Part shown: one piece after another, positions 5,760 to 24,811 of the stretch
How the letters are laid out: every line of letters starts with the position of its first letter
Position numbering within the stretch: position 1 is the first letter of the stretch
DNA from: an uncultured Lachnospiraceae bacterium
GTDB taxonomy: Bacteria > Bacillota > Clostridia > Lachnospirales > Lachnospiraceae
Assembly (NCBI GenBank): GCA_947626435.1
Contig: CANQSB010000007.1
Location: forward strand, 14,243 to 78,242
Direction: 5' to 3'
DNA: 64,000 nt
Notes under the pieces: generated by a model
Told to the model about the DNA's origin: nothing
Databases searched by the model: none
Seen by the model: the letters and a program-made list of their open reading frames with translations, nothing else
Made by a program: the position numbers and the translations under genes

Positions 5760-6944
5760 CTATATGACTTTTCTGATTCTTTCCAATGCTTCCGACAGCA
5801 CACTTCTGGGGCAGGCAACATTAATCCTTTGGAATCCCCTGCCGCTCTCGCCAAAGATCTTTCCGCTGTCCAGCCACAGCTTTGCCTGATACACGATCTG
5901 CTCATCCAGCTCCTCTGCGGAAAGCCCGGTTTCCCTAAAATCAAGCCACACAAGGTACGTTCCTTCATGTTCTGTCATGCGCACGCCGGGAAGCTTTTCC
6001 TCCACATATTTTTTGGTAAATACGATATTATCCGCCACATAGGAATGCATTGCCTGATACCACTCTTCCCCCTTACTGTATGCGGCTTCGCATGCGACAA
6101 GTCCCATCACGCCAAGCTGGCTTATGCCTGCCGCATCCAATTCTTTACGGAACTTATGCCGCAGCTTTGGGTTAGGAATAAAAATGTTGGACAGCAGCAT
6201 GCCGGCAAGGTTAAACGTCTTGCTTGGCGATGTGCATACAATACTGATGTCCTCATATTCTTTTTTCAAATTTGCAAAGACAATATGCTCTCCATGAAAT
6301 ACAAAGTCATGATGAATCTCGTCGCTGACGACGAGCACATGATGCTTCACGCAGATATCTCCAAGCCTTGTCAGCTCATCCCTCGTCCACACCCTTCCCA
6401 CTGGATTATGCGGGCTGCACAGGAAAAACAGTTTAATCTTTTCCTCGATAATCTTTTTTTCAAAATCGTCAAAGTCAATATGATAACGGTTATCCTCTCC
6501 AAGAACTAATGTATTGCTCACCACTTTTCTTCCATTATCTTCTATCACTTCCGAAAACGGGTAATAGACTGGCATCTGGATCAGCACGCCGTCCCCTCGG
6601 TCTGTATACGCCTTGACCGCCATGGCAAGCGCAAATACGACTCCCGGCGTCTTTACCAGCCATCTTTCCTGCACGTCCCAGTCATGATGTTTTTTCATCC
6701 ATGCGCTCACGATATCAAAATACGGCTTCTGCACCTCGCTGTACCCAAAGATCCCATGCCTTGAATGTTCCACAAGCGCATCTTCGATATAAGAAGAAGT
6801 CTTAAAATCCATGTCCGCCACCCAAAGCGGCAGCACATCCTCCGGCTTCCCGCGCCTTTTCGCAAAATCATATTTCAGGCTTTTCGTGCCTTCCCTGTCT
6901 GTCACACTGTCAAAATCAAGATTTCTTTCAGCCATGCAGTTCAC
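5760..6944 (-). CDS. patB: PatB/MalY-type PLP-dependent C-S lyase (cystathionine beta-lyase family, aminotransferase class I/II)
   Basis: 394 aa with the PLP-lysine motif SPSKTFNLAG. Its start overlaps the stop of the upstream gene. Confidence 0.85.
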   Translation of the reverse strand: MNCMAERNLDFDSVTDREGTKSLKYDFAKRRGKPEDVLPLWVADMDFKTSSYIEDALVEHSRHGIFGYSEVQKPYFDIVSAWMKKHHDWDVQERWLVKTPGVVFALAMAVKAYTDRGDGVLIQMPVYYPFSEVIEDNGRKVVSNTLVLGEDNRYHIDFDDFEKKIIEEKIKLFFLCSPHNPVGRVWTRDELTRLGDICVKHHVLVVSDEIHHDFVFHGEHIVFANLKKEYEDISIVCTSPSKTFNLAGMLLSNIFIPNPKLRHKFRKELDAAGISQLGVMGLVACEAAYSKGEEWYQAMHSYVADNIVFTKKYVEEKLPGVRMTEHEGTYLVWLDFRETGLSAEELDEQIVYQAKLWLDSGKIFGESGRGFQRINVACPRSVLSEALERIRKVI

Positions 6945-8094
6945 CTTCTGTCTCTCGGAATACGTTGTCCAGTTCTTCCAGCAGATCCTTTACATCCTCA
7001 ATTCCGACCGAAAGCCTGAGCGTGCTTTCCGTGATGCCGTTTCTTTCCCGAACCTCTTTCGGCACGTCCGCATGTGTCTGTGTCGTCGGGTATGTAATCA
7101 GCGTTTCTACGCCTCCAAGACTTTCCGCAAACTTGATCATGCGGACTTTCTCCAAAACCGCCAGGGCAAATTCTTTACTTTCAAGCTGGAAAGTAATCAT
7201 CGCGCCAAATCCTCTTGCCTGCTTTTTCATCGTCTCATATCCTGGATGTGCGGGAAGTCCTGGATAAATCACTTTGGTCACCGCTTTCTGCTCCTTCAGC
7301 CAGTCCGCCAGAACAATCGCATTCTGCTGCGACTTTTCCATGCGGATGCCAAGCGTCTTTATCCCCCGCAAAATGAGCCAGCTGTCAAACGGCGCAAGTC
7401 CCGCTCCTGTTGTCTTGATTAAAAACCGAAACTTCTCGCTGATGTCTTCTCTGTTTGTAATCAAAAAGCCTGCCAGCGTGTCATTATGACCGCCCAGATA
7501 CTTCGTCCCGCTATGTACCACAATATCTGCTCCCAGATCTAACGGGTTCTGGAAATATGGAGTAAGGAATGTATTGTCCACAATCAGCAGCAGATGATGC
7601 TTCTTTGCGATATCTGAAAGTTTTTCTATATCCGTCACATTCATCATGGGATTAGTAGGCGTTTCCACATAAATCGCCTTTGTGTTCTCGCGGACATAAC
7701 TCTCCACATCTTCCCTAGAGCAGTCAATGTGGGAAAACGTAAGCCCGTTTTTTTCCGATACATTGTTAAAAAGCCGTATGCTTCCTCCGTAAAGGTCTGC
7801 GTCCACAATCAGATGATCCCCTGGCGCAAACAATTCCATTAACATGGTAATCGCTGCCATCCCCGTAGACAAAGCCAGCGCATCTATTCCGTTTTCCAGT
7901 GTTGCCACTATCTTTTCCAAATGCTCCCTTGTAGGGTTCTGCAGCCTGCTGTAATCATATCCTGTGCTTTTGCCCACACTGGGATGGGCATAAGTGGCGG
8001 TCTGATAGATTGGATAGCTTATTGCTCCGTAATTGCCGCCGCATCCTTCCTCTTCTTCCAGATGCAGACATTTTGTCTCAATTCCTCTTGCCAT
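6928..8094 (-). CDS. Trans-sulfuration PLP enzyme (cystathionine gamma-lyase / gamma-synthase / O-acetylhomoserine sulfhydrylase family)
   Basis: 388 aa with HSGTKYLGGHNDTLAG (PLP lysine) and a Cys/Met-metabolism PLP fold pattern. Confidence 0.85.
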   Translation of the reverse strand: MARGIETKCLHLEEEEGCGGNYGAISYPIYQTATYAHPSVGKSTGYDYSRLQNPTREHLEKIVATLENGIDALALSTGMAAITMLMELFAPGDHLIVDADLYGGSIRLFNNVSEKNGLTFSHIDCSREDVESYVRENTKAIYVETPTNPMMNVTDIEKLSDIAKKHHLLLIVDNTFLTPYFQNPLDLGADIVVHSGTKYLGGHNDTLAGFLITNREDISEKFRFLIKTTGAGLAPFDSWLILRGIKTLGIRMEKSQQNAIVLADWLKEQKAVTKVIYPGLPAHPGYETMKKQARGFGAMITFQLESKEFALAVLEKVRMIKFAESLGGVETLITYPTTQTHADVPKEVRERNGITESTLRLSVGIEDVKDLLEELDNVFRETEGELHG

Positions 8095-8112: not shown

Positions 8113-9024
8113 TTATCCTAAGGATTTATCCTTATATTTTGCTATTTCCTCCAGATATTTCTGTCCGATTACGCTGACAGGCGCATCTTTCCTTGATATG
8201 TACCCAATCGTCATCCGTTCGTCGGATTTCAGTTTTACGGCGCAATAATCATCTCCGTTCAAATCTTCACATATGATGCCGGAGCACAGCGTAAATCCGT
8301 TCAATCCAACCATAAGATTCAGCAAAGTGGCCCTGTCATTGGCTCGGATTAGTCTTTTGTACGGATAGGCGCTCAATACCTCTTCCGCAAAATAGAAGGA
8401 ATTATGTTCTCCCTGCGCAAATGCAAGGCATGGGTACTCTTCCAGCTCCTCCAATGCAATCTCTTCCCGCCCCGCCAGAGGATGTCCTTTCCACAGATAG
8501 ACATATATGCCACATTCCAGCAATGGCTGAAACTGCAGTCCATACTCCGCAAACAGCTTATTCAGGACATTCCTGTTAAAATCATTCAGATATAAGATGC
8601 CAATCTCGCTTTTGCGGTTTTTCACGTCTTCAATCACTTCATATGTTTTCGTTTCATGCACCTCAAATTCATACTCGTCCATTCCATACTGCCTTACCAG
8701 CTCCACAAACGCATTAACCGCAAACGTATAATGCTGCATGGATACGCTGAAGCTTTTTTTCACGCCTGTCTGCGAAATATATTTTGCCTCCAGCAGATCA
8801 TACTGTTCCATGACGGATTTTGCATACCCGATAAATTCCATGCCTTTTGTCGTCACAGTAATCCCGTTTTTTGAGCGTGTAAATATTTCAAACCCCAATT
8901 CCTTTTCCAATGAACGGATTGCCGAGGAAAGACTGGGCTGGGATATGAAAAGCTCCTTTGCCGCATCATTCAATGAATTTTGCCCCGCCACAGTGATTGC
9001 GTATTTCAACTGAATCAGTGTCAT
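8113..9024 (-). CDS. LysR-family transcriptional regulator
   Basis: N-terminal wHTH LNDAAKELFISQPSLSSAIRSLEKELG; 303 aa. It lies 18 nt upstream of the lyase genes on the same strand. Confidence 0.9.
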   Translation of the reverse strand: MTLIQLKYAITVAGQNSLNDAAKELFISQPSLSSAIRSLEKELGFEIFTRSKNGITVTTKGMEFIGYAKSVMEQYDLLEAKYISQTGVKKSFSVSMQHYTFAVNAFVELVRQYGMDEYEFEVHETKTYEVIEDVKNRKSEIGILYLNDFNRNVLNKLFAEYGLQFQPLLECGIYVYLWKGHPLAGREEIALEELEEYPCLAFAQGEHNSFYFAEEVLSAYPYKRLIRANDRATLLNLMVGLNGFTLCSGIICEDLNGDDYCAVKLKSDERMTIGYISRKDAPVSVIGQKYLEEIAKYKDKSLG

Positions 9025-9150: not shown

Positions 9151-9180
9151 ATAAAAAAGCAGCCTAATAGCTGCTTTTGT
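9151..9180 (-). terminator. Intrinsic terminator after the nitrogenase-like pair
   Basis: Stem aaaagcagc / gctgctttt with a 6-nt loop and a U-run on the minus strand. Confidence 0.65.
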
Positions 9181-9254: not shown

Positions 9255-10544
9255 TTATAGATTATCATACAAATCTTCTGTAAATGTCAGACCGCCTCTG
9301 TAGCCTGCATAGGTACGGTTAAAAACAAGCCGCTCGTTCATTGGGAATGATGCCAATATAAACTGAATATCCATTTCTAAGGCTGCTTCCCGTTCATTGC
9401 TGCTGCCGATCAGTAAAGTTATCTCTTTTTCTTCATTGAAAAGAACTTGGTTGATCTCATATTGATCTGCGGTAAACACTATCCTTGGCGGCACTGCATA
9501 CTCCAAATCGTTGATCTGGGCAATAATTCTATCCTTATCCTCCTGCCGGAACATCGGTTCCGATATGATCACAAGCACGGGAGTAAAACTGAAATCATTT
9601 GCCAAATACCTTGTGATTCCCACTGCGCTGCTTGCGTCCGCAACTACCGCAAAACGTTTCCAGCTCACCACTCCTATGGATTGCGCCAGATAGTGATAGA
9701 CATAATCCTCTTCTGCAGCAATTACCTTTTCAACCAGCTCATCATCTAAACTAAGAGCCCTTGCGACCTCTCTGACAAACTTTGTCGTATCGGTTGCCCC
9801 TACAAATAATCCCGGAATCCTTATGCTTGGAACACCGAACTTTTCTTCAAATTTTTTTGCCGGTCCATTCCACAGCCATGGATTCACAATAATATTCAAA
9901 GCTGCGCCTGAGCATTTTTTTATATCATCGATTCCCTGATGTTTTGTAAAAAAGGTGTTGACTTTCAGTCCAAGCAAAGACAATATACGGTCAATCTCTT
10001 CCAATGTACCACTCCAAAAAGGATCGTGGTAAGGAACGATCCCAAAAATATTTACGAGTTTCTCATCTTTTTGAACATCTTTTTCGATTACCTGATCGAT
10101 CATGGCATTCCAGACTATTTCATAACCCAGATTACTGTCTCCCGCAAATCCCGGCGTATCAATCGGATAAACTTTATGCCCCTTATCCTGAAACTCCTGT
10201 GTAACGCTGGTGATATCATCGCCAATGATGCCCGCGGTACATCCCGTCAGCACAAAAAAAGCATCCGCATCCATAATATCAATGGCTCCCTGAATGGTAG
10301 TCCTTAACTTGTCTGTCCCGCCAAATACTACTTCCTTTTCCAGCATATTGCTTGAAGAAAGCGATACACTGCTGACAAAGCAGGATGATTTATGTCCTGA
10401 CTGTCCCTGTTCCGCTGCCGAGGTCTGCATACAGCAGCCCGGTCCCGCACGAAAGATGGGACATACTTTATCCAAAGCTCCTAAAACAGAATTGATTCCT
10501 GCCAGAACGCAGCCGCCCCTTGGATTTTCCAATATCTGTGACAT
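9255..10544 (-). CDS. Nitrogenase component-1-type oxidoreductase, NifK/NifN-like subunit
   Basis: 429 aa with motifs PRGGCVLAG, RAGPGCC, VVFGGTDKL and LTGCTAGIIGDD. Its ATG abuts the TAA of the upstream subunit. Confidence 0.8.
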   Translation of the reverse strand: MSQILENPRGGCVLAGINSVLGALDKVCPIFRAGPGCCMQTSAAEQGQSGHKSSCFVSSVSLSSSNMLEKEVVFGGTDKLRTTIQGAIDIMDADAFFVLTGCTAGIIGDDITSVTQEFQDKGHKVYPIDTPGFAGDSNLGYEIVWNAMIDQVIEKDVQKDEKLVNIFGIVPYHDPFWSGTLEEIDRILSLLGLKVNTFFTKHQGIDDIKKCSGAALNIIVNPWLWNGPAKKFEEKFGVPSIRIPGLFVGATDTTKFVREVARALSLDDELVEKVIAAEEDYVYHYLAQSIGVVSWKRFAVVADASSAVGITRYLANDFSFTPVLVIISEPMFRQEDKDRIIAQINDLEYAVPPRIVFTADQYEINQVLFNEEKEITLLIGSSNEREAALEMDIQFILASFPMNERLVFNRTYAGYRGGLTFTEDLYDNL

Positions 10545-11996
10545 TTAAACGCCTCCCTCAATATACTTAAATGCATTTTCTTCATACCATGAATCTTTGT
10601 ATGGCAGTTTCACATGCTTTGCTAATTTCACATTAAACCCCGGATTCTGCAGCTGATCTGCAATTTTATTTCCCAGATATAATAGTCCGTCATATCCCAT
10701 CGTGGGGCGTTTGCCCTCCAAAACGTGCGTAGTCGGAATCCCAAGCTTTGCCGCCCAATCCGGCACTCCGATAAACGCATCCGGTTTTAGTTTGTTTACA
10801 AGGTTTACCTGCTCAAACGGCTGCATATTTGCAATGTCCACCACATAATTTTTGTGGATTCCGTTGAGATATTCGATATCAACCTGTGCATCGTCATCAT
10901 AGGTAGGCGTTTCCAGTCCCACAAGCTCCATGCCAAAGTCATCAATCAAAGCAGCCGCCGCAAAAGAACGCCCTGTTCCCCCGCAGATAAACACCCGTTT
11001 TCCCTGAAGCCTGTTTCTTATCTCTGCCACCAGCGGTTCTATGCGTTTATGTTCCATGGCAATAATGTCTTCCACTTCCTTTTCCTTTCCCAATACTTTT
11101 GCAATGCCACGATACCATTTATCTGTGTTACGGATGCCGATTGGCATTACAGTATGGGAATATGGAATATCATAGTCCTCCCACAAGGTTTTCATAAACT
11201 CGTCGGCAAATACTTTACAGATAGATGTAGAAGCCTCTGCCGCAGGTATCTTCTTAATCTTTTCCAGAGAACTGTAAAATGGGATATAATTTACCCTAAC
11301 GCCAATTTGCGAGAGCATACGCTCCATTTCCTTCTGATCCGCATAGCTTACGGTCGTCGGCGCAAAAAGATTGACTAACCCTTTTTCCTTTGGAACTTTC
11401 TCCTTTTTCAATATGTACTTATTGATAGATAAAAAAGCGGCATCAAAACCAGATGCGCATATTTTTGATTTAAAGCCTTCACAATGTATTGGAACCATGA
11501 TCGTATCCGGATATTCCCGCTGCAGGTCAGAAGCAATGGCATCTATATCATCACCGATAATGCCGGATGCACATGATGCGTAAATAAATGCCAGCTTAGG
11601 ATGGTACTCTTCCACAGCTTTTTTCACAGAATCCCGCAGCTTCTGCTCTCCGCCGAACACAACGCTCTTTTGGTCGATATTCGTAACGATGATCCTTGGA
11701 TTTTTAATGTTTTTAATCCCTCTGTGCGCCTGCCCTACGCGATACATATCTACCGCCATGATTGAACAGCCTATGCACCCCTGCGGGGAATGGGAAATAA
11801 AAACAGAATCCTCCAAGGACATAAGCGCCGCCATACTGTTAATCTGCTGGCATTGCAATCCCTGTGCAAAGCTTCTGTCCGCTCTTTTTAAGCAGCCCTT
11901 TTTAAAATTCTCCTCAACTTCCCTTCCTGTTGTCCCCAAATCGTTGATTCTTCCTGGTTTGCTTTCACGCACACCGGAGTATTGTACTGTTTTCAT
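10545..11996 (-). CDS. Nitrogenase component-1-type oxidoreductase, NifD/NifE-like subunit
   Basis: 483 aa with motifs SHSPQGCIGC, VVFGGEQKL, ASCASGIIGDD and HCEGFKSK, which parallel the NifD cluster-ligand regions. RBS GGAAGGGG. Confidence 0.8.
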   Translation of the reverse strand: MKTVQYSGVRESKPGRINDLGTTGREVEENFKKGCLKRADRSFAQGLQCQQINSMAALMSLEDSVFISHSPQGCIGCSIMAVDMYRVGQAHRGIKNIKNPRIIVTNIDQKSVVFGGEQKLRDSVKKAVEEYHPKLAFIYASCASGIIGDDIDAIASDLQREYPDTIMVPIHCEGFKSKICASGFDAAFLSINKYILKKEKVPKEKGLVNLFAPTTVSYADQKEMERMLSQIGVRVNYIPFYSSLEKIKKIPAAEASTSICKVFADEFMKTLWEDYDIPYSHTVMPIGIRNTDKWYRGIAKVLGKEKEVEDIIAMEHKRIEPLVAEIRNRLQGKRVFICGGTGRSFAAAALIDDFGMELVGLETPTYDDDAQVDIEYLNGIHKNYVVDIANMQPFEQVNLVNKLKPDAFIGVPDWAAKLGIPTTHVLEGKRPTMGYDGLLYLGNKIADQLQNPGFNVKLAKHVKLPYKDSWYEENAFKYIEGGV

Positions 11997-12023: not shown

Positions 12024-12086
12024 ATAGATATTATACTATTTATATAGGATTAATCAAATTACTTATTTTCTATAACCTGTAATAGA
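12024..12086. promoter_or_regulatory. Two short dyads upstream of the nitrogenase-like operon (possible LTTR-type sites)
   Basis: ATAG-N8-CTAT (12024-12039) and TCTAT-N8-ATAGA (12069-12086). These are short AT-rich motifs, so the evidence is weak. Confidence 0.25.
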
Positions 12087-12218
12087 TTTTGCCTATTTCA
12101 CATATCTATCAGGGTTAAATATTGTACATTGGTTCCAGCGAAACAAAACGAGACAGGAACTTTTCATTCCATCTCCGGTTTTCGTCCGCCTTTCTTATAA
12201 ATAGCAAAATCTCCAATA

Positions 12219-12533
12219 TTAAATATGTAATAACAGCATATAGCTTACTGTTCCCAACAAAATACTAAGTAATGTGCTATGTTTCCATTTGTAACTTACC
12301 ACTACAATTAAGACAGCTGTCAAGCTCCATATTCCATCTGCCATAAAGTTATTTCCTATGTCTTTTAAACAATAGACAATCAATATTGCCATGATAGCCG
12401 ACGGCAATATCTCTCCTAACCGTTTTATCCTATTCGGTAGGTCAGTGCCATTTCTAAATATCAGAAAAGGAAGCAGCCTAAGCCCAAAAGTTATCATAGC
12501 AGAGATCAATATCACAAATAAAACTTCTCCCAT
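12219..12533 (-). CDS. azlD: AzlD-family branched-chain amino acid transport protein
   Basis: About 104 aa hydrophobic protein. I chose the ATG at 12533, 2 nt after the azlC stop; the longer track ORF overlaps azlC. Confidence 0.8.
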   Translation of the reverse strand: MGEVLFVILISAMITFGLRLLPFLIFRNGTDLPNRIKRLGEILPSAIMAILIVYCLKDIGNNFMADGIWSLTAVLIVVVSYKWKHSTLLSILLGTVSYMLLLHI

Positions 12534-12535
12534 AT

Positions 12536-13243
12536 TCACCCACTGCCTTCTTTCTGCTTTTTTCCACTCCAAAACATTAAAATTCCAGACACAAAGATCA
12601 ACGCCGGCAGCATAAACGCCGTCTGTCCAAAAATAAGAAGACATATGATTGCTATGATAAGTCCGATCACTGCCGGAAAATGGTTTTTGTTTTTCTCCCA
12701 TTGATCCATAAAAATAATAACAAAAAGTGCAGTCATACAAAAATCAATCCCTTCTAAATCAAAAGGAAGCAGCTGCCCGATCACACCGCCTAATACAGCG
12801 CCAATCATCCAGTAGCATCTGCTGAAAAGAGCCACAAAAAACATAATGTCCTTCTTATTTTCTGTATTATCATCTATGGAACAATTTACCGCATAGGTTT
12901 CATCTGTCATGGTGTGGATCATATACAGCTTTCTTTTTCCCATATCCCGAAAAACGTCCAAAAAGGAGAGGCTGTAAAATGCCTGCCTGCTGTTCATTAA
13001 AAACGCTGTAAGCATAATTGTTATAATGGATGCCCCGCTGCTCAAAAAAGTTATCAGCACGAATTGAAACGCACCTGTATAAATAGTCATACTTGCCAGA
13101 AGTGAATAATACCAATGATATCCGGCATTTTCCATCATCATTCCATATGCCATGCTTACAAACAGATAACTGCACATAATGGGAATGGATTTTAGGAAGG
13201 CAGCTTTCATCACTTGCATATTATTTCTTTTCCCATCGCTCAT
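12536..13243 (-). CDS. azlC: AzlC-family branched-chain amino acid transporter subunit
   Basis: 235 aa multi-pass membrane protein in the canonical azlC-azlD pairing. Confidence 0.85.
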   Translation of the reverse strand: MSDGKRNNMQVMKAAFLKSIPIMCSYLFVSMAYGMMMENAGYHWYYSLLASMTIYTGAFQFVLITFLSSGASIITIMLTAFLMNSRQAFYSLSFLDVFRDMGKRKLYMIHTMTDETYAVNCSIDDNTENKKDIMFFVALFSRCYWMIGAVLGGVIGQLLPFDLEGIDFCMTALFVIIFMDQWEKNKNHFPAVIGLIIAIICLLIFGQTAFMLPALIFVSGILMFWSGKKQKEGSG

Positions 13244-14022
13244 TCCTTGTCATATCCTTCCGAAAAATCTACCCTGCACAGGTCTTTTACTACTTCACCC
13301 GCAAGAATCAATCCTGCCACAGATGGCACAAATGCCACACTGCCTGGAATATCTCTTCTTTCTGTACATTTATGTTTTGCTCCGGGCGGACAGATACAGT
13401 TTGTCCTGCAGCTGATAGCCATATCCTCCAATGGTCTTGTAGGTTTTTCTTCCGAATACACAACCTTTAATTTCTCTATACCGCGTTTTTTCAGTTCCCT
13501 CCGCATGACTTTCGCCAAAGGACATACTTTTGTCTCATAAATGTCAGCGACCTTAAACTGGCTGCCGTCTAACTTGTTCCCAGCTCCCATACTGCTGATA
13601 ATCGGTATATTTTTTTCCTGCGCCTTCATGACAAGTTCAATTTTAGCAGTAACCGTATCTACGGCATCCACAATATAATCATATTCTTCAAAGGGAAATT
13701 CGTCTGCATTTTCAGGCAGGAAAAAACTCTTATGTATGATTACATCTGCATCCGGATTGATTTCAAGCATCCTCTCTTTCATCACTTCCGCCTTATATTT
13801 TCCTACTGTTTTTCGAGTAGCTATGATCTGCCGATTCAGATTCGTCAGGCAGACCTTATCATCATCAATCAAATCAAATGCCCCGACTCCGCTTCGTACA
13901 AGAGCTTCACAGGCATATCCTCCTACACCGCCAATACCAAAAATTGCAACTTTTGAACCGGATAATTTATTCATCGCCTCTTTTCCAAGCAATAATTCTG
14001 TTCTTGAAAACTGTGTGAGCAT
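13240..14022 (-). CDS. tcdA: tRNA threonylcarbamoyladenosine dehydratase (ThiF/TcdA family)
   Basis: Rossmann motif FGIGGVGG plus LIDDDKVCLTNLNRQ; 260 aa. Confidence 0.85.
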   Translation of the reverse strand: MLTQFSRTELLLGKEAMNKLSGSKVAIFGIGGVGGYACEALVRSGVGAFDLIDDDKVCLTNLNRQIIATRKTVGKYKAEVMKERMLEINPDADVIIHKSFFLPENADEFPFEEYDYIVDAVDTVTAKIELVMKAQEKNIPIISSMGAGNKLDGSQFKVADIYETKVCPLAKVMRRELKKRGIEKLKVVYSEEKPTRPLEDMAISCRTNCICPPGAKHKCTERRDIPGSVAFVPSVAGLILAGEVVKDLCRVDFSEGYDKE

Positions 14023-15210: not shown

Positions 15211-15447
15211 TTATTCGTCTGCTCTTGGGGCACCTGACTGTATAAATCCTATAATCTCATCCGTTGCCTTGTCACCGGCATGACAGGCATTCAGTACCTT
15301 CTTGTCATCCAGACGCTTCCGCTTCGCAACAAACTTCTCCAGTTCATTCAGTGCGGCAGCATACTTTGCCTTCGCTTCTGTCACGGAAACTTCCGCTTTC
15401 CTGATCTTCTCGTCTAATGTGATCATTCTTCCTGCCATTCCTGTCAT
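15211..15447 (-). CDS. Small coiled-coil hypothetical protein (78 aa) coupled to the transposase
   Basis: ATGA start/stop overlap with the transposase stop (15444-15447); heptad-like KAEVSVTEAKAKYAAALNELEKF. Confidence 0.5.
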   Translation of the reverse strand: MTGMAGRMITLDEKIRKAEVSVTEAKAKYAAALNELEKFVAKRKRLDDKKVLNACHAGDKATDEIIGFIQSGAPRADE

Positions 15448-17192
15448 CTGCTCCTTTCTTCCTGGGCCGCTGCCTGTTTCTCAAATGCTTCCGTTTCTAT
15501 CCGCATCAGATCGGAACTGAGTGTCCTTGCCTGACGACGTATACTGTCAGCAGTCATGCCAAATGCTTTTAGAATCGTCTTTTGCGTTGCTGTTACGGCA
15601 TAATCCAGGTTGTATTCGTTATCGGCTCCTTTCAGCATCTCTATTTTTTCCAGCTCCTTTAATGCCATCGGCACGGTCATGAAATTCGGCTTCTTATCTA
15701 ACCGGGCAGCTTCGTCCTTGAGGAGCGTGTAGATCCTGCTCCTGATGATCGTGGCTACAAAACCAATGAATATCTTTGTGTCAACGGCTTCGTTTGAATA
15801 TACCCTTTCACAGTTGGCACCGAGATAGGATTTATCCGCGCGGAATGTCTTTTCGGAGTCATCCCGGCTCTTGTATAGCACGAGTGCTTCTTCCGCAGTC
15901 ATTTTTGCGGAAGTGACAATCACAAAATATCCGCACAACCGGATCTCACGGTTGATCACATCAGCCCGTTCTATCCCCGACATAAACTTTTCATCTTCAT
16001 GCCCTTCATGCCAGAATACAAGATCAAAGTATTTTTTATAATCCCCACTGGGACGGATAGGCTCCCCCATAAGATCCCGGAGCTTCCGGCCCATCCTGTC
16101 AATCCTGTCTTCCAGCTTCTCCCGTTCCGAGGCTTTCCTTCCGTCATCATAATAAATGTGAAAGTAACGTTCTTTTTTATCGGATGCATATAGCTTTCTC
16201 CTGATTGTGATTCCGCTGACTTTAAAAGCCCGGATACTGTTCCTCCGGTCATTTTCGAAAGAACCCTGTGCTTCCAGAACCAGTTCGCTCACCAGACTCT
16301 TCATTCCTTTTATCATGATCACAAAATCATACCCGTTATCATCCATGAAGCAGATGTTTTCCTTACAGAAATATCCCCGATCCAGAATAAATCCGATATG
16401 CTCATATCCATAACTTTTCGCCTTTTTCAATGTGTGTTGCAGCTGGGAAACATCGACGATGCTGCCTGGATAGGATTCATAAAACAGCGGTTCCCGGTTG
16501 CTCCGGTCATAGGCGATTGCATAGTTGAAGATCTCATCTTCCATACCTTCTTTCGCATGACCAAGCTCAACCATCTCAATATTGCCTGCCTGGCTTTTCT
16601 TATTTGTAGAATCGTAGGAAATGTAGATCCTCTCGCGGTGATCCTTCTTCGCGTTCCATTCATTCAGGAACTGGATCCGCTGGTCAACCGTGACATCCCT
16701 GAGAAAGCCGGACACCTTCGAGTCGCTGTAGGCTTTCATGTCATCGGTAAACAAGGCGTGATTGTAGGCATAATCCGGATAATACTGCCCGGCGTTTTCC
16801 TCCGTGATAATGGAATAGGCAGCCAGATCCAGGAACAGTCCTGCATCCTGCCCGATAATCCTTGCAATCATCTCATCCAGCTTATAATCGGATATGATCT
16901 TTCGGATTACCAGGAATGCGCCGACATGAAGGCACCCGCTCCTGATCCTCCCATCCTTTTCCGAAGGAAGCAGCTCTCTCGGAAAAAATCTCAGAAACTT
17001 CTCATTCGGAAACATAAAATCCGGCTGTTCGGAATCGCGTTTTCCTATACATGTCCGTTTTGGTATACTATACTTTTTCTCCTTGGAGTATGTGCGTCCA
17101 CGCTCAATGTAAACGTATGGCGTCCCGTTAATTGTTTTGATCGTGATGTTTCCACCATCTTTCGGAATTTTTACCCTACATCCCAGATACAT
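15444..17192 (-). CDS. DDE transposase, IS1634/IS4-like
   Basis: 582 aa. The N-terminus (ITIKTINGTPYVYIERGRTYSKEKKY) is typical of IS1634-family transposases, and the ORF lies inside IR-bounded, TSD-flanked DNA. Confidence 0.8.
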   Translation of the reverse strand: MYLGCRVKIPKDGGNITIKTINGTPYVYIERGRTYSKEKKYSIPKRTCIGKRDSEQPDFMFPNEKFLRFFPRELLPSEKDGRIRSGCLHVGAFLVIRKIISDYKLDEMIARIIGQDAGLFLDLAAYSIITEENAGQYYPDYAYNHALFTDDMKAYSDSKVSGFLRDVTVDQRIQFLNEWNAKKDHRERIYISYDSTNKKSQAGNIEMVELGHAKEGMEDEIFNYAIAYDRSNREPLFYESYPGSIVDVSQLQHTLKKAKSYGYEHIGFILDRGYFCKENICFMDDNGYDFVIMIKGMKSLVSELVLEAQGSFENDRRNSIRAFKVSGITIRRKLYASDKKERYFHIYYDDGRKASEREKLEDRIDRMGRKLRDLMGEPIRPSGDYKKYFDLVFWHEGHEDEKFMSGIERADVINREIRLCGYFVIVTSAKMTAEEALVLYKSRDDSEKTFRADKSYLGANCERVYSNEAVDTKIFIGFVATIIRSRIYTLLKDEAARLDKKPNFMTVPMALKELEKIEMLKGADNEYNLDYAVTATQKTILKAFGMTADSIRRQARTLSSDLMRIETEAFEKQAAAQEERSR

Positions 17193-21724: not shown

Positions 21725-22567
21725 CTACCGCGCCCGCCGCGCCGCTACTACCAGCCGTCCGTTCTCCGTATGATACTCACAGGTTGTCAGCGTCAGCAGT
21801 TCGTCCCCATATTCCGGCACGATTCCTGTGTCATACAGCGACAGCTCCCTGCAGTTGTCCACATAGTAGGCGAATTCCTCCTCTGTGTCTGCCTGAAAAA
21901 ATTGATAATACCGAAACACATCCGTTTCGTTCCGGTAAAAAATACGGGAGAGGAACACCGCGAATATCTCATACTCCTGCTCCTCATAAAGCGTCGTATA
22001 GCGTATCACCGGATGCTCCTGATAAAACGCTTCCTTCTCATAGCCCGTCAGCGCGCGGAACATGGAGCCGTTCTTCATATTATGGCCATGCAGCAGAAGG
22101 TTTGTGCTGCGGGGCTCTACGCTCGCCCCTTCATCAATAAAAATACACCCCGCCGCTTCCTCTTCCCCTGCAAAGTTCCTGTGAAGGTAGTAGCCATAAT
22201 CCTGCGGACGGTACATCACCGGATAGTCAATGACCGTATCGGGAATTCGAATCCAGCCTGCCAAATCGCTGTTCTGCTCATAAAGTTTCTGCATGGACGG
22301 CAGCATCGGCAAAGTTTCCGGCTCCGCTTCCCCTTCCGGCGCCGTTTCCGGAAGCAGCGGGAGGAGCTCTGCCGCTCCGCTCAGGCTGCTGCGTACCTCC
22401 TCCCGCTTCGGCTGGCCGGGCGCCCTATAATACCTCCGGACCACTCCCGCCAGCAGGACTGCCGCCACCGCCAGCAAAACCAGCGCAAGGTCCATCGCCC
22501 GCGTGACGCGACGATACCTCAGGCTTCCCTGCTTTAAGGCGTCTTGTTTTCTGTGCCTGTTATTCAT
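21725..22567 (-). CDS. srtB: Class B sortase
   Basis: N-terminal TM anchor, LLLHGHNM (His) and LTLTTC (catalytic Cys). ATGA overlap with the upstream surface-protein gene. Confidence 0.85.
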   Translation of the reverse strand: MNNRHRKQDALKQGSLRYRRVTRAMDLALVLLAVAAVLLAGVVRRYYRAPGQPKREEVRSSLSGAAELLPLLPETAPEGEAEPETLPMLPSMQKLYEQNSDLAGWIRIPDTVIDYPVMYRPQDYGYYLHRNFAGEEEAAGCIFIDEGASVEPRSTNLLLHGHNMKNGSMFRALTGYEKEAFYQEHPVIRYTTLYEEQEYEIFAVFLSRIFYRNETDVFRYYQFFQADTEEEFAYYVDNCRELSLYDTGIVPEYGDELLTLTTCEYHTENGRLVVAARRAR

Positions 22568-24741
22568 CTCTCGTCTCTTAACAATGCCATGCGCTTCCTG
22601 CCGATTACAATGCCTGCAGCGACTACCGCCGCCAACGCAATCAGTGCGGGCACGCCCGTATTTCCTGTCACATCCCCATCCTTATGGGCACGATCAAGCT
22701 CTGCCGGGGATTCCAACTGCGCAGGCGCTTCCTTTCTCTCATATTCTACCACGACGATTGGTGAAAAGCCGGTCAATGTCGCCGCGATACTGCCGTCCGC
22801 CACCGCACCCGGCTCAATCATCTCCCAAGCGCCGTCATTCTTCCTGTGATACAGAAGATAGCTGCCGCCCGCCTTCACGCCATCAACCGCAACCACTAAC
22901 TCGCCGCCATGTGCAGATGCTATATCCACTGCCGCCAGTATCCGGATTGCGGAGGCATCCGTCAGACTTGTACTGATTGCCGCTTCCGCCGAGCGGATTG
23001 TATCCGCGTCAAGCTCCAAAGCCGCCACTGCCACGCCGTCTACACGCGCCACTATTACCGCCTTTGCAAGACCTGCCGTATTTTCATCTGTGTAATAGAA
23101 GCCGCTATTGTCCACGACATCTCTTCCGCCACCCGTACTCGGTTCAGCTTCTACGCCACCGATACTTAGTTCATTTTCTACACTGCCTGTGCTTGGTTCA
23201 TTTTCTGCGTCACCTGTGCTTGGTTCATCTTCTATGTCGCCTGTGCTTGATTCGTCTTCTGCGTCACCTGTGCTCGGTTCGTCTTCTGTGTCGCCTGTGC
23301 TCGGCTCATCTTCTGCGTCATCTGTGCTTGACTCGTCTTCCGCGTCGTCTGTGCTCGGCTCGTCTTCTGCGTCGCCTGTGCTCGGCTCGTCTTCTGCGTC
23401 GTCTGTGCTCGATTCGTCTTCTGCGTCGTCTGTGCTCGGCTCATCGCCTCCGCTATCTGTCCGGAATGTAACCTCATTCTCCTCCGCCCACTTCTCAGCA
23501 TAGGAACCTGCCGCAGCTTTGATAGTCAGACCGTCGCAGCCATTGAACGCATTCTCTCCAATCGACCGGACACTTTCCGGGATTGTCACGCTGGTCAGAC
23601 CGCTGCAGCCGGAAAACGCCTCACTTCCTATCTCTGTTACATGCTCCGGAATCGTCACATCCGCCAGAGCCGTACAGCCGAAAAACGCTTGCTCCCCTAC
23701 CTTTGTTACACTGTCCGGAATCGTCACAGCTGCCAGACCGCTGCAGCCGGAAAACATACTATCGCTTATCTCCGTTACACCGTTTGGAATCTTCACATAT
23801 TTCAAGTCAGTGCAATCTATAAATGCACCTACTCCTATCTCGCTTACACTATCTGGAATTGTCACGCTGGTCAGATTGCTGCAATTATTGAACGCATCCT
23901 CTCCAATCGACCGAACGCCTTCTAGGATTGTCACTTTGGTCAGCTTTAAGCAGTGGGCAAACGCCTCGCTTCCTATCGCTGTTACACTCCCAGGGATTAC
24001 CACACTTTCCAGGCTGGTGCAAGCGCCAAACGCCTCTTTTCCTATCGCTGTTACACTCTCAGGGATTACCACTCGTTTCAGGTTGGCGCACTTTTCAAAT
24101 GCCGACATTTCTATCTCTGTTATACCCTCCGGCAGCACCACAGATTCCAGACTACGGCAGCCATAAAACGCACCTACCCCTATCTTTGCCACACTCCTCG
24201 GAATCCTCACAGATACCAAACTGCTGCAACCGTCGAACATATAATCTGTTATCTCTGTTATACTCTTCGGCAGCTCCACAGATTCCAGGCTGTCACAATA
24301 ACTAAATGCGTGCCGTTCTATCTCTATTACAGTTTCCGGAATCACCACACTTTTCAGACTTCTGCAGTGGGAAAACGCATTAGATGCGATTTTCGTTACA
24401 CTTTCCGGAATCCTTATACGCTCTTCCGTACCCTCATAGCTTTTCAGCACCCCGTCTTCGATTAGATACCCGTCCACATACAATAATTCCCCATTCTCCG
24501 AAGCCTGCAGTGGTTCCACATTCGTTTCTGTTTCCGTATCTGTCTCCGTATCTGTTTCCGTCCCTGTCTCCGTACCTGTTTCCGTCTCCGTCTCTGTTTC
24601 TGTTTCTGTTTCCGTTTCCGTATCTGTTTCTGTTTCCGTCTCCGTCTCTGTTTCCGTTTCCTCCGCCTTCGCCGGCATGACAGAAATCGTATTCACAGCC
24701 AGCAGCGCCGCTGCCGCCAGCACCAACCATCTTTTCTTCAT
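22564..24741 (-). CDS. Cell-surface leucine-rich-repeat (BspA-type) protein with a C-terminal sorting signal
   Basis: Signal peptide MKKRWLVLAAAALLA and a (TE/TD/TG)n tract. About 13 LRR units (IPxSVTxIGxxAFxxCxxLxSV). About 11 acidic decapeptide repeats. C-terminal hydrophobic helix plus GRKR tail. The ATG at 24741 follows GGAGGA. Confidence 0.85.
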   Translation of the reverse strand: MKKRWLVLAAAALLAVNTISVMPAKAEETETETETETETDTETETETETETETETGTETGTETDTETDTETETNVEPLQASENGELLYVDGYLIEDGVLKSYEGTEERIRIPESVTKIASNAFSHCRSLKSVVIPETVIEIERHAFSYCDSLESVELPKSITEITDYMFDGCSSLVSVRIPRSVAKIGVGAFYGCRSLESVVLPEGITEIEMSAFEKCANLKRVVIPESVTAIGKEAFGACTSLESVVIPGSVTAIGSEAFAHCLKLTKVTILEGVRSIGEDAFNNCSNLTSVTIPDSVSEIGVGAFIDCTDLKYVKIPNGVTEISDSMFSGCSGLAAVTIPDSVTKVGEQAFFGCTALADVTIPEHVTEIGSEAFSGCSGLTSVTIPESVRSIGENAFNGCDGLTIKAAAGSYAEKWAEENEVTFRTDSGGDEPSTDDAEDESSTDDAEDEPSTGDAEDEPSTDDAEDESSTDDAEDEPSTGDTEDEPSTGDAEDESSTGDIEDEPSTGDAENEPSTGSVENELSIGGVEAEPSTGGGRDVVDNSGFYYTDENTAGLAKAVIVARVDGVAVAALELDADTIRSAEAAISTSLTDASAIRILAAVDIASAHGGELVVAVDGVKAGGSYLLYHRKNDGAWEMIEPGAVADGSIAATLTGFSPIVVVEYERKEAPAQLESPAELDRAHKDGDVTGNTGVPALIALAAVVAAGIVIGRKRMALLRDER
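23130..23450. repeat. Coding 30-bp tandem repeat (about 10-11 units)
   Basis: Units such as tcgtcttctgcgtcacctgtgctcgg encode the STDDAEDEP-type decapeptides. Confidence 0.85.
24524..24664. repeat. Coding 6-bp microsatellite-like tract
   Basis: (gtttcc/gtctcc/gtatct)n encodes Thr-Glu/Thr-Asp/Thr-Gly dipeptide repeats. Confidence 0.85.
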
Positions 24742-24811
24742 ATTCCTTCCTCCGTTTCTTTCCGCCGCTCTGCGATAGCCCATTTACCGCAGTTACACAT
24801 GTTTTTTCTCA

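Follow-up and report, generated by a model that had tools for sequence, protein, structure and literature searches.

Functions have been assigned to Group IV nitrogenase-like (NFL) proteins in the cases of Nfa, CfbCD, methylthio-alkane reductase (MAR), and ISR only, and reviewers of the field regard the many uncharacterised clades as its main open problem (PMC13474568). The function of MAR and its control by the LysR-type regulator SalR have been described in Rhodospirillum rubrum, which also carries extra nflDK pairs (PMC13474568), and the structure of its MarD/MarK component is available (9FMG; PMC12552129). In MarD, a loop containing Arg428 and His429 provides a cofactor ligand and is required for activity, substitutions of H429 inactivating MAR; it is reported to be conserved in nearly all Group IV NFLs. 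Trp195 and His375 are active-site residues around the belt sulfide S2B. The nflDK pair of R. rubrum and NflDK3 of Rhodopseudomonas palustris (RPA2363-64), which lack H and B genes of their own and lie near sulfur/methionine genes, respond together with the mar genes to a LysR-type regulator or to sulfur limitation (PMC13474568; bioRxiv 2026.08.20.746119). Multiple DK pairs per genome were noted by Dos Santos et al. (2012, PMC3464626), who also described NifE/N-like pairs that have six P-cluster cysteines and Cys275 and no His442 and are linked to genes for cysteine synthase. The literature also mentions homologues of MarD/K in Bacillota, as yet uncharacterised. Here we describe a pair of this kind, D2 (D-like) and K2 (K-like), in a 64-kb stretch of contig CANQSB010000007.1 from an uncultured Lachnospiraceae bacterium, the whole of which is called the window below.

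The explanation that we consider probable is that D2K2 forms the catalytic half of a Group IV reductase of Cys/Met sulfur metabolism, uncharacterised and dependent on NifH, whose partners would be encoded elsewhere in the genome. The catalytic part would be a D2K2 heterotetramer of a lineage distantly paralogous to MarDK and conserved across gut and rumen Lachnospiraceae. A NifH-type Fe protein, from a gene elsewhere in the genome, would deliver electrons ATP-dependently to a P-cluster bridging D2 (C49, C74, C142) and K2 (C12, C37, C102), from which they would pass on to an Fe-S(-carbide) cofactor derived from NifB, with C260 and probably H424, on a nitrogenase-type loop, as the residues that hold it. 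At this cofactor an organosulfur compound would be reductively cleaved, and the released sulfur species would feed Cys/Met synthesis via cysteine synthase, the Cys/Met-metabolism pyridoxal phosphate (PLP) enzyme, and PatB, under the control of LysR and/or Rrf2. It is thus C-S bond chemistry that we infer for D2K2.

Family membership and cluster ligands

Both proteins belong to Pfam PF00148, which they match end to end (profile positions 1-398 of 399), with 271.5 (D2) and 252.2 bits (K2) against a cutoff of 28.6. The matches to NCBIfam equivalogs all stay far below their cutoffs: the best is nifE (TIGR01283, 170 bits vs 505), the name under which public pipelines (NCBI) annotate D2 orthologues, and those to nifD (TIGR01282, 147 vs 653) and NifN (TIGR01285, 41 vs 327) are lower. 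An identity as protochlorophyllide or chlorophyllide reductase (DPOR/COR; BchNB, BchYZ) or as CfbD was rejected, the best scores being 98 bits for BchB (cutoff 490) and 45 bits for CfbD (cutoff 268). The closest PDB matches are instead proteins of Group IV-C, MarD for D2 (E 2e-68) and MarK for K2 (E 2e-71), with the next ones, NifD and NifE, at about 1e-30. Foldseek likewise ranks MarD first, at 28-30% aligned identity, when queried with an AlphaFold model of D2 (a monomer built from a shallow alignment; pLDDT 66, pTM 0.62). In a neighbour-joining tree with 100 bootstraps, which is a distance tree without the curated Group IV-A to IV-F reference set, the clade of the window D2, the D2 of Lachnospiraceae bacterium C1.1, and a 54%-identical representative is supported at 100% and joins the proteins P0124/P0125 (87%), outside the clade formed by R. 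rubrum MarD and the D1 proteins of Lachnospiraceae. D2K2 thus appears to be closest to MarDK and yet to stand outside the MarDK clade.

A scan of 185,579 species genomes, a set outside which the window's own genome lies, returned 247 relatives of D2. The best 80 of these are 86-97% identical to it and come from Butyrivibrio, Eubacterium, Dorea, Blautia, Roseburia, Lachnospira, and many metagenome-assembled genomes. Judged by these relatives, the window pair is to be regarded as the orthologue of a 'second DK pair' present in more than 240 Lachnospiraceae genomes. In strain C1.1, whose orthologue is 89% identical, it is indeed the second DK pair of its cluster; it is the D1 protein there that corresponds to MarD proper (307 bits to 9FMG_A) and has the Arg-His loop, and the two pairs share only 28.7% identity between D1 and D2 and 37% between K1 and K2. 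Compared with the nearest relatives, among them a carrier of a full cluster (L020), the ratio of nonsynonymous to synonymous substitutions (dN/dS) lies between 0.02 and 0.045 in D and between 0.05 and 0.07 in K, with an unsaturated dS of 0.2-0.7, as would be expected of functional genes under strong purifying selection. The 90% protein cluster that contains the window D protein has 3754 members and a representative of 908 aa, the length of its named Bacteroides transglutaminase-like members; it looks like a clustering artefact, and would account for no 100% match of the window sequence turning up in the homologue search.

The six putative P-cluster ligands correspond to known ones throughout: in alignment to 9FMG, C49, C74 and C142 of D2 fall on MarD C66, C91 and C158, and C12, C37 and C102 of K2 on MarK C32, C56 and C121 (the reference positions are 62/88/154 in NifD and 70/95/153 in NifK). 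The earlier note on this DNA had listed the motifs SHSPQGCIGC, ASCASGIIGDD and HCEGF for the D-like protein and RAGPGCC and LTGCTAGIIGDD for the K-like one, as regions that supply the cysteines of a bridging cluster; all are present in the translations. The residue expected to hold the cofactor, C260 of D2, is matched to MarD C270 and to NifD C275 whether phmmer, MAFFT, or hhalign is used, and R343, also invariant, occupies the position of NifD Arg359. All putative ligand residues are 100% invariant in 81 D2 and 75 K2 orthologues. For these comparisons the MarD sequence was rebuilt from a printed alignment; its residue numbering and that of Azotobacter vinelandii NifD were checked and found correct.

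Around the cofactor, D2 departs from MarD in ways that are just as strictly kept. Trp195 is replaced by C180 and His375 by T365, both invariant in the 81 orthologues, Cys73/Gln74 by A56/A57, and the Arg428-His429 loop is absent, the columns of the two residues being taken by V411 and P412. As its active-site residues differ, the substrate of D2K2 probably differs from those of MAR; and as the loop is near-universal in Group IV NFLs, the D2 clade would form an exception to this conservation. The missing loop and the degree of divergence also set D2 apart from the published description of NflDK3, which is 52-56% identical to MarDK1 and keeps His429, whereas D2 is loopless and far more divergent.

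In place of the MarD histidine, D2 appears to carry one on a nitrogenase-type loop. The invariant H424 aligns with NifD His442 by phmmer (1MIO, 9P1X) and by hhalign (A. vinelandii NifD), and it stands exactly 10 residues ahead of GYDG, as His442 does of GFDG, so that the spacing to the G-[YF]-D-G motif is identical; in the AlphaFold model it falls between a short strand and the next helix, a placement that agrees with the topology of NifD. On these alignments, H424 would probably be a ligand of the cofactor. D2K2 shares with Mo-nitrogenase the PF00148 fold, the P-cluster cysteines, C260, and R343. NifD Gln191, His195, Val70, Arg96, and the homocitrate anchor Lys426 are represented in D2 by C180, F184, a gap, V82, and a gap, respectively, and since they are absent, N2 fixation by D2K2 is not expected. 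Taken together, D2K2 appears to be a member of a recognised, functionally uncharacterised part of the Group IV radiation, with a distinct and invariant cofactor environment.

Partner genes and layouts in relatives

The layout of the surroundings was surveyed at the best 80 loci, 26 of which have flanks too short to classify, leaving 54 informative ones. NifH and D1K1 lie within 10 kb upstream of D2K2 at 22 loci; at a further 15, D1K1 is in view and the locus edge removes the rest; six have NifH and/or NifB without D1K1; and 11 show an orphan layout over inspected flanks of at least 9 kb on the upstream and at least 7 kb on the downstream side. D2K2 is therefore found within 10 kb of other nfl genes at 43 of the 54 informative loci, and NifH is adjacent at 26 of the 80. 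The 22 full clusters have NifB-like, NifX, NifH, (CysK), D1K1, and NifX2 genes in the 10 kb upstream of D2K2, partners reminiscent of marBHDK; nifEN-type genes were seen at none of the related loci. In C1.1, the order is LysR, NifU, NifS, a NifB-like radical SAM protein (291 aa), NifX-like, NifH, D1, K1, NifX-like, a cysteine-synthase-like gene, D2, K2, and an ABC transporter, then PALP, PatB, and the Cys/Met-PLP enzyme. The NifH associated with these clusters differs from that of MAR in being closer to Clostridium NifH (for C1.1, 490 bits to C. pasteurianum NifH vs 289 to MarH), and passes the nifH equivalog cutoff (468 bits vs 394). Such genes (L001:4900-5748 and the H genes of L020-L095) would count as true Cluster III nifH in gut and rumen surveys, a 'pseudo-nifH' problem.

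At three loci D2K2 is the sole DK pair of its cluster. The isolate Clostridium sp. AM49-4BH (L044) has the order Cys/Met-PLP, PatB-like, NifB-like, NifX, NifH, PALP, NifX, Rrf2, D2, K2, trpE, and L063 the order D2, K2, NifB-like, NifH. In the third, a 91%-identical relative (L012:7832-9767), DUF2292, a 227-aa NifB-like radical-SAM protein, a NifX-like protein, and Rrf2 precede D2K2 and the spoIIIA operon follows; neither NifH nor D1K1 was found there within 10 kb of D2K2. The standing of D2K2 as the only DK pair beside reductase and maturation genes argues that it would be a catalytic component in its own right, with a cofactor or maturation of the NifB type. In a different organism (L096-L098), at least three PF00148 DK pairs surround a single NifB-NifX-NifH core, and SsuA-type ABC transporter genes accompany them. 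Directly 3' of K2, the nearest relatives encode a 136-aa PNPOx-like protein of flavin-binding type (L019:6696-7106, L021:12814-13224, L014:12759-13169); it is absent from the window, where a terminator-like hairpin follows K2.

Genes of sulfur metabolism recur near D2K2: CysK-like (335 bits, just under the cysKM cutoff), CysE-like, CymR/IscR-like Rrf2, NifS, SsuA-type and cystine-type ABC transporters, the Cys/Met-PLP enzyme, and PatB. A setting of sulfur assimilation, with a LysR gene nearby, is a trait that D2K2 has in common with MarDK. Orthologues of the Cys/Met-PLP enzyme of the window flank nfl clusters in L044, L072, L078, and L083, and orthologues of its LysR gene (72-73% identity) head full NifB-X-H-D1K1-D2K2 clusters in L090 and L095, as laid out by tblastn. 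In L072, the genes D1, K1, X, D2, K2, Cys/Met-PLP, and PatB follow one another in the downstream order of the window. From these correspondences, the window resembles the downstream portion of an ancestral cluster, in which D2K2 has acquired a 220-bp promoter region of its own.

Table 1. Features of the D2K2 locus in the window.
Feature	Position	Strand	Basis and content
D2, nitrogenase-like alpha-type subunit	10545..11996	-	483 aa; PF00148 E 1.5e-80; best PDB match MarD 9FMG_A
D2 key residues	within 10545..11996	-	putative P-cluster ligands C49/C74/C142; cofactor C260; invariant H424, C180, R343
K2, nitrogenase-like beta-type subunit	9255..10544	-	429 aa; PF00148 E 1.1e-74; best PDB match MarK 9D9U_C
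K2 key residues	within 9255..10544	-	putative P-cluster ligands C12/C37/C102; plus invariant C38
D2/K2 junction	10542..10560	-	ribosome-binding site GAGGGAGG, then TAA-ATG; translational coupling; read from sequence
Promoter-like site TTGATT-16-TATAAT (candidate)	12030..12057	-	consensus scan, 10/12 matches; about 35 nt 5' of D2 start
Dyad ATAGAT-N16-ATCTAT (candidate regulator site)	12082..12109	.	5' of the -35 hexamer; perfect 6-bp arms
Intrinsic-terminator-like hairpin	9155..9178	-	10-bp stem and T-run; 77 nt past K2 stop
LysR-family regulator	8113..9024	-	Pfam HTH_1 and LysR_substrate
Cys/Met-metabolism PLP enzyme (cystathionine gamma-lyase/synthase or sulfhydrylase type)	6928..8094	-	PF01053 (Cys_Met_Meta_PP) E 7e-143
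PatB-family C-S lyase	5760..6944	-	TIGR04350, 458.6 bits vs cutoff 340
AzlD	~12219-12533	-	Pfam AzlD; 104-aa gene call in L005
AzlC	12536-13243	-	Pfam AzlC; branched-chain amino-acid exporter pair with AzlD, directly upstream of D2

Within the window, no NifH-type P-loop or cluster motif occurs in the six frames, no Fer4_NifH, NifB, or NifX family member is found among the other open reading frames (ORFs), and a relaxed tblastn reveals no remnants of NifH, NifB, NifX, CysK, or D1/K1 (nothing below E ~0.06), so that, in contrast to the marBHDK operon, neither marB nor marH stands beside the DK pair; the ~5 kb that lie past the window start contain housekeeping genes only. The protein P0375 was considered as the NifH of the window organism and rejected, since it belongs to a different organism; a NifH search for a metagenome link gave 8000 matches with generic names, and the NifH proteins nearest to that of the closest full-cluster relative lie on contigs of 1-2 kb.

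Cultured strains are among the 11 carriers of an orphan layout: Butyrivibrio hungatei NK4A153 has the order pgk, tpi, D2K2, lacI, and Eubacterium ruminantium ATCC 17233 the order feoAB, pfkB, D2K2, GNAT, GH43. In Table S2 of Greening et al. (2019, PMC6776011), a single NifH gene with its gene ID is entered for each of four isolates, B. hungatei NK4A153, B. hungatei XBD2006, Butyrivibrio sp. LB2008, and Butyrivibrio sp. M55, all of which are strains with orphan D2K2; the table also gives NifH for two other E. ruminantium strains, and Cluster III NifH has been described in Butyrivibrio and Lachnospira (Igai et al., 2016, PMC4995403). As orphan-layout Butyrivibrio isolates are thus among the NifH carriers, 'orphan' in the best-sampled analogues means unlinked, with a partner elsewhere, and by analogy the same may apply to the window genome, where the missing reductase most probably reflects a difference of linkage only.

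Several statements of the earlier note can be read against these layouts. That no ORF which it classified in the window is of the NifH or NifB type agrees with the searches above, and the flanks are as it described them, with AzlC/AzlD upstream and LysR, a Cys_Met_Meta_PP enzyme, and a PatB-family C-S lyase downstream. Its view of a nitrogenase-like DK pair in a sulfur/Cys-Met context stands as well, with MAR as the closest characterised relative. The description as an orphan does not extend to the family, given the 43 of 54 loci with linked nfl genes. Of its two suggestions for the electron donor, a gene elsewhere is likely in view of the NifH in relatives, whereas a donor of a different kind is disfavoured by the same linkage. 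A NifH partner does occur in relatives, while the pair falls outside the characterised MarDK clade in the neighbour-joining tree. The neighbourhood comparison that the note proposed bears out the sulfur context in the nfl clusters, though not in the orphan-layout isolates.

The pair itself appears to be a self-contained bicistron, with a promoter-like site 5' of D2, a coupled junction, and a hairpin with T-run 3' of K2. The junction reads GAGGGAGGcgttTAAATG, with TAA directly abutting ATG at 10544/10545, which bears out the coupling described before, and with a strong ribosome-binding site within the 3' end of D2. In the nearest relatives D2 directly follows another gene; in the window it has an intergenic region of 220 bp instead, absent from these relatives, in which the promoter-like site sits. 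This site is only a candidate, as the number of promoter-like sites in the D2 upstream region is not above the shuffled expectation. The dyad in front of it might be where the adjacent LysR regulator binds, as a candidate with short arms in AT-rich DNA and without statistical support, being too short to assess. No upstream regulatory motif common to the window and its relatives was found in an upstream comparison, and an Rfam gathering scan of the window shows no riboswitch or T-box control, with two tRNAs only.

The Cys/Met-PLP enzyme of the window scores under every NCBIfam equivalog cutoff. AzlC/AzlD adjoin D2K2 in the window and at none of the 80 related loci; the order ThiF, AzlC, AzlD, D, K, LysR, Cys/Met-PLP, PatB, RecA is common to three independent metagenome assemblies, and is thus not an assembly artefact. 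The ThiF-family gene, TcdA-like, at 13240-14022 (-), recurs within a few kb of D2K2 in L026, L028, L031, L036, L045, and L057, with 66-90% identity to the window copy and layouts otherwise different, and L014 has a Rhodanese-ThiF fusion directly 5' of D2; either conserved synteny or a link to sulfur transfer could lie behind this recurrence. A DDE_Tnp_1 transposase of 582 aa lies at 15444-17192 (-), 3.4 kb upstream of the DK pair; its neighbourhood also occurs in an independent metagenome contig (L006), and the element may have played a part in the rearrangement by which D2K2 came apart from the rest of the nfl cluster. The remaining ORFs are, apart from this one transposase, housekeeping genes (recA/recX, rny, pnp, nrdDG, mutS2, spoIVA, spo0A, der, plsY, gpsA). 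A GC peak of 0.55 (vs ~0.43 elsewhere) at 22001-24000 coincides with an ORF at 22564-24783 (-) for a 739-aa BspA-type leucine-rich-repeat (LRR_5) surface protein.

Competing explanations and significance

The closeness to MarDK invites the reading of D2K2 as a second MAR isozyme, acting on the same substrates as MarDK (dimethyl sulfide, ethyl methyl sulfide, methylthioethanol, which MAR reduces to methanethiol and a hydrocarbon) in the manner of R. palustris Mar1/Mar2. MarDK is the closest characterised relative, specialised Mar isozymes are known from R. palustris, and a true MarDK-like D1K1 co-occurs with D2K2 in many clusters; yet D2 is only 28.7% identical to its co-resident D1 and lies outside the MarD clade, and W195, H375, R428, and H429 are invariantly replaced or deleted (C180, T365, loop absent), where substitution of H429 alone inactivates MAR. 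We therefore judge an isozyme unlikely. The absence of the MarD-type histidine ligand would suit another alternative, namely that D2K2 is no enzyme but a NifEN-like protein (scaffold, carrier, or store) in which the cofactor of D1K1 is matured or kept. Orthologues are labelled 'NifE', NifE is the top NCBIfam match, and the frequent position of D2K2 in tandem after another DK pair resembles nifDKEN, an idea of Dos Santos et al. (2012). The NifE score, however, reaches about a third of its cutoff (170 vs 505 bits); K2 keeps all three P-cluster cysteines, most of which NifN-type subunits lack according to the literature, implying a full P-cluster site; D2K2 is the sole DK pair in the clusters of L044, L063, and L012, with both NifH and NifB in some, and stands alone in Butyrivibrio; and MAR itself needs no NifEN. 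A scaffold role seems no likelier to us than an isozyme.

Less probable still is a D2K2 that dispenses with NifH in the window organism and draws on another donor, such as ferredoxin, flavodoxin, or a flavoprotein. It would fit the lack of an H gene in the ~66 kb around the pair, the NifB/NifX/Rrf2 and D2K2 of L012 with no H within 10 kb, and the PNPOx-like flavoprotein directly after K2 in the nearest relatives; against this, all members of the superfamily that have been characterised are two-component systems, H is adjacent at 26 of the 80 loci, and the four Butyrivibrio isolates of orphan layout that were checked each have a NifH entry. Hardly probable, finally, is a non-functional remnant left after loss or rearrangement of an nfl cluster, helped for example by the nearby insertion element. 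The upstream cluster genes are missing, the DDE transposase is close by, and the AzlCD neighbourhood is unique when set against the 80 loci, but neither ORF is disrupted, all ligands are conserved, dN/dS is 0.02-0.07, the pair has a promoter-like site, ribosome-binding site, and terminator of its own, and identical sequence and layout occur in several metagenomes, without pseudogene remnants.

A NifH-dependent sulfur reductase of Group IV, the explanation preferred here, has to contend with observations of its own. The loop that carries Arg428-His429 in MarD is deleted in D2, leaving it 4 residues shorter (FIGVP----DWAAK vs IIRHNGLAPLAS), so that D2K2 possibly holds a different cofactor, or none. 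MAFFT offsets H424 from His442 by two columns, making their equivalence hinge on gap placement, and near the cluster sites the AlphaFold model has low confidence. NifH, NifB, and NifX are lacking within 52 kb upstream and ~14 kb downstream of D2K2, and a NifH/NifB partner is attributed to the window organism by analogy with its relatives. The local context of the orphan-layout isolates (pgk-tpi; feoAB) is unrelated to sulfur, which makes gene context alone weak evidence for function.

More tentatively, and with some doubt, the D2K2 lineage may constitute a functionally new class of nitrogenase-like reductase rather than a MAR isozyme, with a NifB-derived carbide cluster held by C260 and H424 in place of the Arg-His loop of nearly all other Group IV enzymes, and the invariant thiol of C180 at the substrate-facing position of Gln191 in NifD and Trp195 in MarD. 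If so, it would carry out an undescribed reduction of an organosulfur (or other) compound common in animal guts, and would represent a natural intermediate between the MAR-type and nitrogenase-type modes of cofactor ligation.

The D2K2 clade is very widespread, occurring in more than 240 genomes, and unusually conserved in gut and rumen Lachnospiraceae, where it is routinely mis-annotated as NifE or nitrogenase; the canonical-looking Cluster III NifH that would serve it inflates nifH-based estimates of gut and rumen diazotrophy. Several of its carriers are in culture, which makes the question of its function testable. With the invariant loss of the Arg-His motif and a histidine on the nitrogenase loop instead, the clade may offer a test case for how the protein shell tunes an Fe-S-carbide cofactor to its substrates.

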